Source: Escherichia coli 042 (GTDB lineage: Bacteria > Pseudomonadota > Gammaproteobacteria > Enterobacterales > Enterobacteriaceae). From it: a DNA stretch of 64,000 nucleotides. Positions 4,918-20,012 of the stretch are shown here, piece after piece. Position 1 is the first letter of the stretch, and each line of letters begins with the position of its first letter. The notes under the pieces are model-generated. The model did not search any database. It saw nothing but the letters and a program-made list of their open reading frames with translations, and was not told where the DNA came from. Both the position numbers and the translations under genes were made by a program. The stretch lies in assembly GCF_000027125.1 (NCBI RefSeq), contig NC_017626.1; one strand, written 5' to 3'.

Positions 4918-6306
4918 TTATAGGGTTAAGCATTGAATACTGGTGCGCGCGGCGGCCAGCGGATCGACTCTGGCGACGTTTGCCAGCAGTGGTAATAGCC
5001 CCCGGGAATCGCGGTAATATTCAAATTCGGTCGGTAAGAGAATGCGTTTACCGTCGTCGTTTAACTCGCGGTATTTCAACCAGTGATGCATATCGAACTG
5101 ACTGGCACGCGAGAGCCATCCGCCGGATCCGACGACTTTACGCACGGTTGTCAGGTCACGTCCCATCTGTAAATCGACATTGCCGACGCAGGTGCAGACC
5201 TCTTTTTTGGTGCCCGCATGTCTTTCGGTGGCATAACCCACACACAGTCCGGCCAGGACGGTATCGAAATATTTTTCTTCTGCATTCGCGGGTAAGTAGT
5301 CGGGATGAGCGACTAGATGACGGAGGTAATGATAAAAAGCGTCCAGCTGTGCGGGTTGCTGAGCAAAATTCACATTGACTAACTCTTTCGCACTTTCACC
5401 AACCACCATTGCCGAGACGCGCATTCCCAGATCGCCTTCCACCGTCCGTTTCACGAAGGGTTCCGGTACGCCGTGTAAAACGGTGTCGGGCGAGAGCGTG
5501 TTGGCACAGGCGGAATAGACATCGGTGGTTGCGCCACCCATGTCGATCAGCATGAACTCTTTCCAGCTGTGATCGACATTACTGATTGCCTTAACCAGTT
5601 CAAAGACTGTCCACGGTGTCGGCATTGGTTCTTCGCCTGTTTTATCAACAACGACATCCAGCCCTTTCCCTTTAACGATGCGTTTAAGGAATATGTCGCA
5701 GATAGCCTGGCGTGCAGCTAAAGGGTTCGGATGGTCAAGATCGGGCAGAACGTTGTCGACGATGGTCAGGTCTTTATGCCCTAGGATCTCCTGCACCTCG
5801 TCCTGAATATCCCGGTTTCCGGCATAAATAATGGCGCAGTCGAGTTTGGATTCTGCCAGCACACGGGCGTTATTCAGGCCGTAGCTTTCTTCTCCGCCGT
5901 CGGTGCCGCCGGTGAACAAGAGAATATCGGGCTGCGTTTCTTCCAGTGCCTGGATATCACGGCGGTTCAGCTTGTAGGCGTAATATTGCGCAATTTTAGC
6001 CCCCGCAGAGTGAGCGGTTACTTTCGCGGTTTCCAGGGTGATAGAAGGCACCAATCCCATTGCGGCAACCGCCAGCCCACCTTTGGCAGAGGAGGAATAC
6101 TTCAATGCAACCTCACCACTGTTTAACAGGGGGAGGGCATTATCTACGTTTAACACCTGGTCCAGGCTGGAGAAAAACCCCTTCGCCAGATGATGGGTGG
6201 TGGTTGGGGTCAGAACGTGGTTAACCAACGTTAACGCGTCCCCCTCCCGGGTGAAGAGGGCTGCTTTGGTCCACGTCGATCCAATATCGACAGAGACGAT
6301 TTGCAT
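4918..6306 (-). CDS. Glutamate mutase-associated protein L (MutL/GlmL, putative reactivase/chaperone)
   Basis: 462-aa ORF between S and E subunit genes; N-terminus [18 protein letters not shown] is an ASKHA/actin-like ATPase motif typical of GlmL. Confidence 0.7.
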   Translation of the reverse strand: MQIVSVDIGSTWTKAALFTREGDALTLVNHVLTPTTTHHLAKGFFSSLDQVLNVDNALPLLNSGEVALKYSSSAKGGLAVAAMGLVPSITLETAKVTAHSAGAKIAQYYAYKLNRRDIQALEETQPDILLFTGGTDGGEESYGLNNARVLAESKLDCAIIYAGNRDIQDEVQEILGHKDLTIVDNVLPDLDHPNPLAARQAICDIFLKRIVKGKGLDVVVDKTGEEPMPTPWTVFELVKAISNVDHSWKEFMLIDMGGATTDVYSACANTLSPDTVLHGVPEPFVKRTVEGDLGMRVSAMVVGESAKELVNVNFAQQPAQLDAFYHYLRHLVAHPDYLPANAEEKYFDTVLAGLCVGYATERHAGTKKEVCTCVGNVDLQMGRDLTTVRKVVGSGGWLSRASQFDMHHWLKYRELNDDGKRILLPTEFEYYRDSRGLLPLLANVARVDPLAAARTSIQCLTL

Positions 6307-17140: not shown

Positions 17141-17686
<546 letters not shown>

Positions 17687-17695
17687 GAGAATTGC

Positions 17696-18487
17696 ATGAG
17701 CAGTAACTTCAGACATCAACTATTGAGTCTGTCGTTACTGGTTGGTATAGCGGCCCCCTGGGCCGCTTTTGCTCAGGCACCAATCAGTAGTGTCGGCTCA
17801 GGCTCGGTCGAAGACCGCGTCACTCAACTTGAGCGTATTTCAAATGCTCACAGCCAGCTTTTAACCCAACTCCAGCAACAACTCTCTGATAATCAATCCG
17901 ATATTGATTCCCTGCGTGGTCAGATTCAGGAAAATCAGTATCAACTGAATCAGGTCGTGGAGCGGCAAAAGCAGATCCTGTTGCAGATCGATAGCCTCAG
18001 CAGCGGTGGTGCAGCGGCGCAATCAACCAGCGGCGATCAAAGCGGTGCGGCGGCATCAATGACGCCGACAGCTGATGCTGGTACTGCGAATGCTGGCGCG
18101 CCGGTGAAAAGCGGTGATGCAAACACGGATTACAATGCAGCTATTGCGCTGGTGCAGGATAAATCCCGCCAGGATGACGCAATGGTGGCATTTCAGAATT
18201 TCATCAAAAATTACCCTGATTCAACTTACCTGCCAAACGCCAATTATTGGCTGGGTCAGTTAAACTACAACAAGGGTAAAAAAGATGATGCGGCGTACTA
18301 TTTTGCTTCGGTAGTAAAAAACTATCCGAAGTCGCCAAAGGCTGCAGATGCGATGTTTAAAGTCGGCGTCATCATGCAGGACAAAGGTGACACCGCAAAA
18401 GCGAAAGCCGTATACCAGCAGGTTATCAGTAAATACCCTGGTACTGATGGCGCTAAACAGGCGCAAAAACGTCTGAACGCGATGTAA
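17696..18487 (+). CDS. cpoB: Cell division coordinator CpoB (YbgF)
   Basis: 263-aa protein with signal peptide, coiled coil and C-terminal TPR-like region; last gene of the tol-pal cluster. Confidence 0.9.
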   Translation: MSSNFRHQLLSLSLLVGIAAPWAAFAQAPISSVGSGSVEDRVTQLERISNAHSQLLTQLQQQLSDNQSDIDSLRGQIQENQYQLNQVVERQKQILLQIDSLSSGGAAAQSTSGDQSGAAASMTPTADAGTANAGAPVKSGDANTDYNAAIALVQDKSRQDDAMVAFQNFIKNYPDSTYLPNANYWLGQLNYNKGKKDDAAYYFASVVKNYPKSPKAADAMFKVGVIMQDKGDTAKAKAVYQQVISKYPGTDGAKQAQKRLNAM

Positions 18488-18651: not shown

Positions 18652-18727
18652 GGGTCGTTAGCTCAGTTGGTAGAGCAGTTGACTTTTAATCAATTGGTCG
18701 CAGGTTCGAATCCTGCACGACCCACCA
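18652..18727 (+). tRNA. lysT: tRNA-Lys (anticodon UUU)
   Basis: 76-nt sequence gggtcgttagctcagttggtagagcagttgacttttaatcaattggtcgcaggttcgaatcctgcacgacccacca with encoded CCA. Confidence 0.95.
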
Positions 18728-18762
18728 CTAACATAGTTAGTTGTAGTATCCAGCGTAGTATT

Positions 18763-18838
18763 GGGTGATTAGCTCAGCTGGGAGAGCACCTCCCTTACAA
18801 GGAGGGGGTCGGCGGTTCGATCCCGTCATCACCCACCA
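18763..18838 (+). tRNA. valT: tRNA-Val (anticodon UAC)
   Basis: 76-nt sequence gggtgattagctcagctgggagagcacctcccttacaaggagggggtcggcggttcgatcccgtcatcacccacca. Confidence 0.95.
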
Positions 18839-18840
18839 CC

Positions 18841-18916
18841 GGGTCGTTAGCTCAGTTGGTAGAGCAGTTGACTTTTAATCAATTGGTCGCAGGTTCGAAT
18901 CCTGCACGACCCACCA
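18841..18916 (+). tRNA. lysW: tRNA-Lys (UUU)
   Basis: Identical copy of the tRNA-Lys sequence. Confidence 0.95.
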
Positions 18917-18967
18917 CTAATTACGGTGGGTTCGGTGGAAGTAGTTTGTAGTATCCAGCGCAGTATC

Positions 18968-19043
18968 GGGTGATTAGCTCAGCTGGGAGAGCACCTCCCT
19001 TACAAGGAGGGGGTCGGCGGTTCGATCCCGTCATCACCCACCA
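18968..19043 (+). tRNA. valZ: tRNA-Val (UAC)
   Basis: Identical copy of the tRNA-Val sequence. Confidence 0.95.
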
Positions 19044-19046
19044 CTC

Positions 19047-19122
19047 GGGTCGTTAGCTCAGTTGGTAGAGCAGTTGACTTTTAATCAATTGGTCGCAGGT
19101 TCGAATCCTGCACGACCCACCA
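19047..19122 (+). tRNA. lysY: tRNA-Lys (UUU)
   Basis: Identical copy of the tRNA-Lys sequence. Confidence 0.95.
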
Positions 19123-19220
19123 ATTTTAACATCAAACTCAGATGTTAAGCGTGAAGGATAACGTTGCGCCAGCAACGGCCCGTAGGGCGAGCGAAGCGAG
19201 TCATCCTGCACGACCCACCA
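19123..19220 (+). repeat. tRNA-derived remnant between lysY and lysZ (carries tRNA-Lys 3' end cctgcacgacccacca)
   Basis: Spacer contains gcgagcgaagcgagtcatcctgcacgacccacca, whose 3' part is identical to the tRNA-Lys acceptor end; the same motif recurs in the tandem repeats after lysQ. Confidence 0.6.
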
Positions 19221-19268
19221 ATTTTAAAGATTGGTTCCGAGTAGAAATCTTTCAGGTAACACCCGTAT

Positions 19269-19344
19269 GGGTCGTTAGCTCAGTTGGTAGAGCAGTTGAC
19301 TTTTAATCAATTGGTCGCAGGTTCGAATCCTGCACGACCCACCA
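19269..19344 (+). tRNA. lysZ: tRNA-Lys (UUU)
   Basis: Identical copy of the tRNA-Lys sequence. Confidence 0.95.
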
Positions 19345-19377
19345 TCCTGAATGATTAAAGCAGCATAATCCCGCAAG

Positions 19378-19453
19378 GGGTCGTTAGCTCAGTTGGTAGA
19401 GCAGTTGACTTTTAATCAATTGGTCGCAGGTTCGAATCCTGCACGACCCACCA
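19378..19453 (+). tRNA. lysQ: tRNA-Lys (UUU)
   Basis: Identical copy of the tRNA-Lys sequence. Confidence 0.95.
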
Positions 19454-19800
19454 ATGTAAAAAAGCGCCCTAAAGGCGCTTTTTTGCTATCTGCGATACTC
19501 AAAGATTCGAACCTGCAGCAGGTTCGAGTTGAGCGCAGCGAAACAACGGAGCAGCTCGCGGCGACGGCCCGAAGGGCGAGCGAAGCGAGTCATCCTGCAC
19601 GACCCACCAATGTAAAAAAGCGCCCTAAAGGCGCTTTTTTGCTATCTGCGATACTCAAAGATTCGAACCTGCAGCAGGTTCGAGTTGAGCGCAGCGAAAC
19701 AACGGAGCCGCTCGCGGCGACGGCCCGTAGGGCGAGCGAAGCGAGTCATCCTGCACGACCCACCAATGTAAAAAAGCGCCCTAAAGGCGCTTTTTTGCTA
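19454..19800 (+). repeat. Tandem 156-bp repeats (two full units plus a partial third), each with a terminator hairpin and a degenerate tRNA-Lys 3' half
   Basis: Unit begins atgtaaaaaagcgccctaaaggcgcttttttgc at 19454, 19610 and 19766; each full unit ends with cctgcacgacccacca. Confidence 0.8.
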
Positions 19801-20012
19801 TTCAGGCATCCTCAATTTCACTTTGTAACCTGATGACATCTTCAGAGCTTACTTTGCAAGCAACTCTACGTCGGTGGAATTAGGCGTAATTCGAGTGACT
19901 TTTCCCCACCATTCGACTATCTTGTTTAGCATATAAAACAAATTTCACCGATAACAGCGAATATTACGCTCATGTCGGTTTTAACGTTAAGCCTGTAAAA
20001 CGAGATGGTAAG

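Follow-up and report, generated by a model that had tools for sequence, protein, structure and literature searches.

Repeats of the Escherichia coli 042 lysT operon very probably belong to the known tRNA-linked repeat (TLR/RtT) family

Introduction

What are the sequences in and behind the lysT operon of Escherichia coli that end exactly as a tRNA-Lys gene ends and yet are not tRNA genes? The stretch of DNA analysed here, called the window, comprises 64,000 nt of E. coli 042 (contig NC_017626.1). A sequence-only reading of it described such an element in a spacer of the operon and, behind the last tRNA gene, a tandem series of 156-bp units that combine a terminator hairpin with a degenerate tRNA-Lys 3′ half; it suggested that these could be relics of tRNA gene duplication or decoy 3′ ends.

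A family of such repeats has long been described. Egan and Landy reported the first tRNA-linked repeats (TLRs), those of tyrT, in 1978, and Rudd drew up a catalogue in 1999; TLRs are defined by an 18–19 bp 3′ end identical to that of the upstream tRNA or rRNA, and K-12 carries 22 copies at 10 loci, with one to five copies per locus (PMC8144298). No function is known for the TLRs that lie in tRNA operons, and a starvation phenotype formerly credited to rtT was retracted (PMC8144298).

Results

Repeats in and behind the lysT operon

The + strand of the window carries seven intact tRNA genes of the lysT operon between 18652 and 19453, on which ARAGORN and Rfam agree with each other and with the sequence-only reading. 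Tandem Repeats Finder reported one tandem array at 19436–19801, with a period of 156, 2.3 copies, 99% matches and a score of 718. The unit boundaries given below follow our own register and not the limits of that array.

18652 (Lys), 18763 (Val), 18841 (Lys), 18968 (Val), 19047 (Lys), 19269 (Lys) and 19378 (Lys), + strand: starts of the seven tRNA genes
19123–19220, + strand: short element of 98 nt in the lysY–lysZ spacer, starting 1 nt after lysY
19150–19159, + strand: 5′ closing strand of the short element, CGTGAAGGAT, complementary at 9 of 10 positions to the pseudo 3′ end ATCCTGCACG
19203–19220, + strand: pseudo tRNA-Lys 3′ end of the short element, ATCCTGCACGACCCACCA
19393–19833, + strand: open reading frame of 146 aa that starts at a TTG within lysQ; not considered a gene
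19454–19609, + strand: long repeat unit 1, including terminator T1, starting 1 nt after lysQ
19456–19486, + strand: T1, the intrinsic terminator of the operon as judged by folding, beginning 3 nt past the CCA of lysQ
19484–19609, + strand: body of long unit 1, 126 nt, Rfam RtT match of 50.2 bits
19504–19527, + strand: hairpin 1 of unit 1, made of the inverted copy GATTCGAACCTGC (19504–19516) and the direct copy GCAGGTTCGA (19518–19527) of the 5′ half of the tRNA-Lys T-arm
19592–19609, + strand: pseudo tRNA-Lys 3′ end of unit 1, ATCCTGCACGACCCACCA
19610–19765, + strand: long repeat unit 2
19612–19642, + strand: terminator T2, identical to T1
19640–19765, + strand: body of long unit 2, Rfam RtT match of 48.3 bits
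19660–19683, + strand: hairpin 1 of unit 2, with the same inverted and direct pair
19748–19765, + strand: pseudo tRNA-Lys 3′ end of unit 2, ATCCTGCACGACCCACCA
19768–19798, + strand: terminator T3, at the start of the third, incomplete unit
20013: start codon of nadA

The two complete units differ at just two positions (19553, A/C; 19572, A/T) and are followed by a third copy of the first 34–48 nt of the unit; unique sequence toward nadA begins after 19801. The 16-mer CCTGCACGACCCACCA occurs eight times in the 64-kb window, always on the + strand and within 18712–19765. The tRNA-Lys genes account for five of these, which leaves three elsewhere (19205, 19594 and 19750), and the chance expectation is nil, with 0 matches in 100 shuffles. 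The exact identity to the tRNA-Lys 3′ end extends over 18 nt, ATCCTGCACGACCCACCA, beginning at the T-loop ATCC and ending with CCA. The tandem array and the eight 16-mer copies bear out the earlier claim that the repeats, with their exact tRNA-Lys 3′ end, are real.

A terminator hairpin in each 156-bp unit, as the sequence-only reading had proposed, is likewise supported. The hairpin AAAAAAGCGCCCTAAAGGCGCTTTTTT occurs at 19458–19484, 19614–19640 and 19770–19796, with A and T tracts on its flanks, and folds at –19.1 kcal/mol (z = –5.4); a hairpin identical to T1 is also found after lysV in K-12. A promoter and terminator scan reported none of the three + strand terminators and no promoter-like site, the former probably because the A-tract pairs with the T-tract and leaves an extended stem with no free T run. 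The terminators are assigned here from folding and the literature, and the scan is uninformative on internal promoters.

Assignment to the TLR/RtT family

Three stretches of the operon match the Rfam model RtT (RF00391) at or above its gathering score of 45 bits, namely 19054–19220 (54.4), 19484–19609 (50.2) and 19640–19765 (48.3). The short element alone scores 42.9 bits over model positions 46–130, just below the gathering score, and reaches 54.4 bits only when the T-arm of lysY is counted as the 5′ part of the model; it is therefore a truncated RtT member. In other RefSeq strains the NCBI pipeline places an “RtT sRNA” feature at the same locus, with limits that coincide with the 126-nt bodies of the long units.

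The elements of the window lie in a tRNA operon directly downstream of stable RNA genes, and all three carry the exact 18-nt 3′ end. They share 29 invariant core columns in an alignment with the elements of tRNA-Tyr, tRNA-Pro and tRNA-Arg. The 58 nt on the 5′ side of the 18-mer resemble the equivalent part of the tRNA-Tyr and tRNA-Pro RtT elements (z = 4.0 to 6.5) and are unlike tRNA-Lys (z = –1.9 and –1.4). Because the body is unlike tRNA-Lys and like the Tyr and Pro elements, the elements are not decayed tRNA halves, and the description of a degenerate tRNA-Lys 3′ half has to be given up. The part derived from tRNA is confined to the 18 nt and, in the long units, a T-arm piece of 10–13 nt, which speaks equally against relics of tRNA gene duplication. 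No Rfam tRNA model matched the elements at E values up to 1, and ARAGORN found the seven genes only.

The distribution of the core was surveyed by scanning one genome per species for GCRACGRCCCGWAGGGYGA. In Enterobacterales and a few other Gammaproteobacteria, the core lies 50–125 nt 3′ of tRNA-Lys(UUU), tRNA-Tyr(GUA), tRNA-Arg(ACG) or tRNA-Pro(UGG). Nearly all core matches for which an upstream tRNA was found end in the exact cognate 3′ 14-mer (Lys, Tyr, Arg or Pro), the exceptions being a few decayed copies and matches at contig ends, where the upstream gene is not visible. Behind 5S rRNA genes there is a further set, whose members finish with the 3′ end of 5S rRNA. The body of the lysT elements is the conserved TLR/RtT core common to elements behind tRNA-Tyr, tRNA-Pro, tRNA-Arg and 5S rRNA. 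The 156-bp unit of terminator and RtT element is itself conserved in Pantoea and Klebsiella and is also present in Leclercia, Pseudocitrobacter and Citrobacter.

A dispersed mobile repeat of the REP/BIME type was considered and rejected: within the window the core is confined to the lysT operon, and in Enterobacterales it occurs only beside stable RNA genes or at contig ends. The many matches in Alcanivorax belong to a different repeat that has only a short GC hairpin in common.

We conclude that the three elements very probably belong to the TLR family, Rfam RtT, the short one as a 5′-truncated member and each long one as a terminator plus a degenerate member, with no known function at this locus. 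The family itself is already known, named and routinely annotated, which the sequence-only reading had not recognised.

Anatomy and folding of the elements

A TLR consists of a conserved hairpin-rich core that ends in the exact last 18–19 nt of the upstream tRNA or 5S gene, and in complete members an inverted copy of the cognate 3′ region precedes the core. Such members begin with a 5′ strand complementary to the pseudo 3′ end (in Tyr, for example, GGGGAAGGAT with ATCCTTCCCC). There follow a hairpin of inverted and direct copies of the 5′ half of the cognate T-arm, three conserved core hairpins, the motif GAGTMATCC and, last, the cognate 3′ end. This arrangement, antisense and split sense copies of the 3′ region of the upstream RNA around a common core, is found behind tRNA-Tyr, tRNA-Lys, tRNA-Pro and 5S rRNA. 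Of this arrangement the short tRNA-Arg elements retain only the antisense strand, which pairs with their pseudo 3′ end; in them, as in the short Lys elements, the 5′ strand and core are present and the T-arm hairpin is absent.

The short element of the window has kept the closing stem but not the first two hairpins. Its fold, at –32.7 kcal/mol (z = –3.6), places the 3′ end in a stem from which 8 nt extend as a free tail. The bodies of the long units are also more stable than shuffled sequences (z = –3.3 and –2.4). Their closing stem has 5 of 10 pairs, of which 3 are uninterrupted, with the mismatches marked by cmscan, and the E. coli long units appear from their sequence to have lost the closing stem of the family. 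In Pantoea, Klebsiella and Erwinia, full-length elements linked to tRNA-Lys reach RtT scores of 71–95 bits, compared with 48–50 bits for the E. coli long units, which are structurally degenerate relative to those of other genera.

Closing-stem pairs were counted by script, the MAFFT alignment having put the short and long 5′ closing strands in different columns. Cognate strands form modestly more pairs than non-cognate ones (8.7 vs. 7.1 of 10), a contrast that is small because all 3′ strands are pyrimidine-rich and G–U pairs are allowed, and strong covariation is not claimed from it. Published covariation support for the family structure is stronger than this pair-count contrast.

Variation between strains

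Nine E. coli lysT loci were parsed exactly with one script. In all nine, whole elements are present or absent as clean blocks, and the downstream spacers are constant in every allele (35, 51, 48 and 33 nt, or 4 nt before the terminator). Representative alleles are given below, with K for tRNA-Lys, V for tRNA-Val, T for the terminator and numbers for spacer lengths in nucleotides.

Window: K-35-V-2-K-51-V-3-K-[short]-48-K-33-K-[T+long]x2-T
K-12: four short elements, one per Lys spacer, plus one long unit
Strain 536: zero elements; all seven tRNAs intact; lacks the short element precisely
Ecol_316: three long units
E200086: two long units
O157:H7 strain: no long unit; six tRNA genes rather than seven

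The prediction that copy number differs between strains is borne out, with 0–3 long units and 0–4 short elements at lysT. An assembly artefact is unlikely because alleles with 0, 1, 2 and 3 units occur in independent complete genomes. The valU operon varies in the same manner, with a long unit after lysV in K-12 and none in strain R10.

Among 5,426 complete E. coli genomes, 2,510 (~46%) have at least one long unit at the lysT-side flank and 54% have none there; the valU-side flank, after lysV, carries a long unit in 1,911. Long units anywhere in the genome were found in 3,243 genomes at 5,149 places, and 40% of genomes are without any. Some 700 extra tandem copies remain, and therefore the two-unit state of the window is a minority allele. 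The four short-element sites reach at least 80% query coverage in 4,066, 3,592, 4,146 and 1,996 of the 5,426 genomes, figures that are upper bounds, since coverage joins nearby pieces regardless of order and near-identical neighbours add up. Short site 2, for instance, appears occupied in 76% of genomes by coverage vs. two of the nine inspected loci, and occupancy of the short elements is accordingly taken from the exactly parsed loci.

The short element is flanked by direct repeats of 18 bp and the long units by direct repeats of 54 bp. On sequence grounds these would be obvious substrates for deletion and unequal exchange. Whole elements may be gained and lost between them by unequal crossing-over or replication slippage, as the structures of the alleles suggest.

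Transcription of the operon

The primary transcripts of lysT and valU in K-12 measure ~1,100 nt and ~438 nt (PMC4176162), and in our comparison with K-12 gene coordinates both sizes fit termination at T1. The two operons have identical terminators, which are removed by RNase P; long 3′ trailers are trimmed by RNase II and PNPase, and wild-type K-12 shows few processing intermediates and no stable spacer species on northern blots (PMC4176162). From this K-12 literature, the short element would be part of the ~1.1-kb primary transcript and be discarded as a 3′ trailer during tRNA maturation.

The long units, lying behind T1, would be transcribed by read-through at most and are probably little transcribed, because the published K-12 work implies a stop at the first terminator. 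A position behind a terminator is no proof of silence, since three 5S-linked TLRs with the layout T1–TLR–T2 give read-through transcripts that bind Hfq and CsrA (PMC8144298). More speculatively, T2 and T3 could provide extra insulation for nadA. The operon works without any element in some strains, and the elements are dispensable.

Discussion

Alternative explanations

The main rival to membership in the family with no known function here is that the long units are read-through small RNAs, cut out at the pseudo tRNA 3′ end and acting as growth-rate-coupled regulators, as proposed for RrA, RrB and RrF. Those RNAs share with the lysT units the order T1, TLR, T2 and the repetition of the upstream 3′ end ~150 bp downstream (PMC8144298), and the stability of the long-unit bodies relative to shuffles (z = –3.3 and –2.4), together with conservation of the unit across genera, fits a functional RNA. 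We nevertheless consider this unlikely, given that the K-12 transcript sizes fit termination at T1, that the closing stem appears lost in E. coli, and that 54% of E. coli genomes have no unit at the locus and 40% none anywhere. Stenum et al. give a CsrA-binding probability below 0.01 for the 19 tRNA-operon TLRs (PMC8144298).

A selected role could also lie in cis. The antisense and sense layout of TLR/RtT elements might reflect a function in maturing the 3′ end of the neighbouring stable RNA or in its folding, or in a read-through transcript, with copy number at lysT tuning that role or the insulation of nadA from a very strong tRNA promoter. We regard this as improbable. Conservation of the 156-bp unit across genera and the published covariation do lend some weight to a selected role at the level of the family, and to that extent they count against the explanation preferred here.

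The decoy proposal of the sequence-only reading holds that the pseudo 3′ ends, ACCCACCA, titrate 3′ exonucleases, poly(A) polymerase, the CCA-adding enzyme or tRNA-targeting toxins off tRNA-Lys. The 3′ end is copied exactly, and the short element presents it in a stem with 8 nt of free tail; Stenum et al. suggested that the repeated 3′ end directs RNase E processing (PMC8144298). An acceptor-stem mimic is missing, however, the 5′ strand GGGTCGT being absent and tRNA models finding no match, and there would be at most one decoy per tRNA. The long units are placed behind a terminator, strain 536 does without every element, and no stable spacer RNA has been reported from the wild type. Titration by decoys is, on this evidence, highly unlikely.

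That the elements are relics of tRNA-Lys gene duplication, with the 3′ half surviving from decayed copies, would account for the exact copying of the last 18 nt of tRNA-Lys, and the operon has clearly expanded by duplication of blocks of tRNA and spacer. The 58 nt upstream of the 18-mer are nonetheless unrelated to tRNA-Lys (z < 0) and related to the Tyr and Pro elements, no tRNA model matches at E values up to 1, and the same core recurs after four further stable RNAs, in every case joined to the 3′ end of the RNA in question. We give an origin by tRNA decay only the slightest probability.

A coding function is scarcely credible. It would rest with the 146-aa open reading frame at 19393–19833, which the sequence-only reading had called an artefact, or with 28-aa Arg-rich frames at 19529–19615 and 19685–19771 that parallel Tpr of the tyrT repeats. 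Open frames do exist, and RRxRPEGR is common to the 28-aa frame and K-12 Tpr, but the shared peptide merely translates the conserved RNA core. The starts are TTG codons. The long frame begins within the tRNA gene lysQ, passes three terminators and escapes a stop codon only because the period of 156, a multiple of 3, preserves the frame; its dismissal as an artefact was correct. Its translation reaches no Pfam cut-off, and none of the eight annotated lysT loci inspected lists it as a CDS. Its length follows the number of units, and it is gone where units are absent.

Scars of integrative elements, in which a tRNA 3′ end duplicated at insertion leaves attL/attR-like copies, are hardly conceivable here: the duplicated segment does run from T-loop to CCA, the one typically duplicated by tRNA-targeting integrases, but just 80–138 bp lie between the repeats, made up of conserved non-coding core and encoding neither integrase nor cargo, the elements stand in tandem, and the core keeps its orthologous place across genera and also follows 5S rRNA.

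Significance

Membership in the TLR/RtT family, the reading we prefer, matters little as a discovery, as the repeats have been on record since 1978 and in a catalogue since 1999, have an Rfam model and are annotated automatically in RefSeq. Its outcome is corrective, in that the elements are neither tRNA pseudogenes nor carriers of a gene. The analysis adds an exact map of the alleles, their population frequencies, natural strains free of elements and the structural degeneracy of the E. coli long units relative to other genera. The lysT operon emerges as a hot spot of clean presence/absence polymorphism, with zero to at least five or six elements per operon, which is relevant to typing of the locus, to assembly checking and to the engineering of tRNA operons. 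Natural element-free alleles such as that of strain 536 offer ready-made controls for work on the function of tRNA-operon TLRs, which have been little studied.

Comparison with known systems

The 3′ETS-leuZ of the glyW-cysT-leuZ operon resembles the lysT elements as a processing by-product of a tRNA operon that could have a function of its own, and it has no sequence relationship to them. It is reportedly a small-RNA sponge that base-pairs with RyhB and RybB; we know of no known or predicted pairing target of this kind for the lysT elements.

Closer in layout are RrA, RrB and RrF, from between the dual terminators of rrnA, rrnB and rrnD (PMC8144298), which have the same T1–TLR–T2 order and a repeat of the 3′ end ~150 bp downstream. 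They follow 5S rRNA, are transcribed by read-through and bind Hfq and CsrA, properties that are hypothetical for the lysT units.

RtT (rttR) of tyrT-tyrV has a core homologous to that of the window elements (CGTTGC..GCAACG, GNCCCGWAGGG and GAGTMATCC) and the same arrangement of tandem units after the last tRNA, a single copy in the spacer and a cognate 3′ end. It ends in the 3′ end of tRNA-Tyr, and the window elements in that of tRNA-Lys. The units measure 178 bp at tyrT, where the sequence inspected shows no intrinsic terminator in them, and 156 bp with one in the window; the closing stem has 10 of 10 pairs at tyrT vs. 5 of 10 in the Lys long units of E. coli.

The nearest match is found among the TLRs of K-12 itself (PMC8144298), which like those of the window lie in or just after a tRNA operon, end in 18 bp identical to the upstream gene and occur in several copies per locus. 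The literature range of one to five per locus is reached by K-12 lysT, for which we count five. Nothing essential distinguishes the window from K-12 lysT: the alleles differ in that the window has one short element and two long units, and K-12 four and one, respectively.

Architecture of the repeat elements

Complete elements of the tRNA-linked repeat family (TLR; Rfam RtT, RF00391) consist of an inverted copy of the final 20-28 nt of the cognate tRNA and, after it, a direct copy that is interrupted within the T-loop by the common core (TTCGA / core / ATCC). The 3′ region of the real tRNA and the inverted arm are almost antisense to one another. This layout is found at:

window 19504-19527 and 19660-19683, within the two long units after lysQ
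L004, minus strand, the tyrT locus
L021, L058, L064 and L080, further loci

The TLR core also occurs between the 5S rRNA gene and the next tRNA, or after 5S:

L086, 297-449, 5S-linked element of Pseudocitrobacter faecalis
L013, 80-231, 5S-linked element
L069, 205-392, 5S-linked element
L113, 5S-linked element of E. coli

In these elements GGCAGTTCgCTACTC, which is the 5S 3′ region in reverse complement, stands ahead of the core, and the 3′ terminus reads AACTGCCAGGCAT followed by CAAATT, copying the 5S 3′ end and the first bases downstream. They make up the TLR family's 5S-linked branch, which has been described previously (PMC8144298).

Core matches outside Enterobacterales

In Marinobacterium, Amphritea and a gammaproteobacterial MAG (L028, L099 and L070), tRNA-Arg(CCG) is followed downstream by elements that contain the core. 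At their ends these are similar to the 3′ end of the cognate tRNA, the exact match having been lost, and they may represent family members that are older or in decay. The twenty matches to the core search pattern in Alcanivorax sp. 24 (L031-L045) come from another repeat, dispersed and present in high copy number (…CCGCCATGGACGGCGGTCATAAAAAA…), that has only the short GC-rich hairpin in common with the TLR core; no tRNA genes adjoin these copies.

Strain variation in the lysT operon

The number of tRNA genes in the lysT operon varies, as well as the repeats. The operon of E. coli O157:H7 Show KS 470-1 (L127, locus positions 1278-1970) has six tRNA genes rather than seven, one tRNA-Lys and its spacer being absent; such changes presumably arise by recombination between identical tRNA-Lys copies. 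Strain CUVET24-CCU22 (L002) carries the short element in the lysY-lysZ spacer (locus positions about 1144-1289), and all five real tRNA-Lys genes are intact. The pseudo 3′ end of this element, the copied tRNA-Lys terminus that closes it, lacks the exact 16-mer and is matched only with a tolerance of up to 2 mismatches, a hint that the pseudo end is weakly constrained. Upstream of cpoB, a strong Rfam match (142 bits; window 17587-17725, plus strand) marks the CpoB/ybgF intercistronic RNA thermometer, an already known element unrelated to the lysT-operon repeats.

An arginine-rich frame and tpr

Each long unit contains a 28-codon arginine-rich frame (MSAAKQRSSSRRRPEGRAKRVILHDPPM):

window 19529-19615, plus strand
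window 19685-19771, plus strand

This frame shares RRxRPEGR with Tpr, a 29-aa product that is annotated as a 'protamine-like protein' in the tyrT repeats. The common peptide is the translation of the conserved RNA core, which raises doubt over the status of tpr as a real gene.
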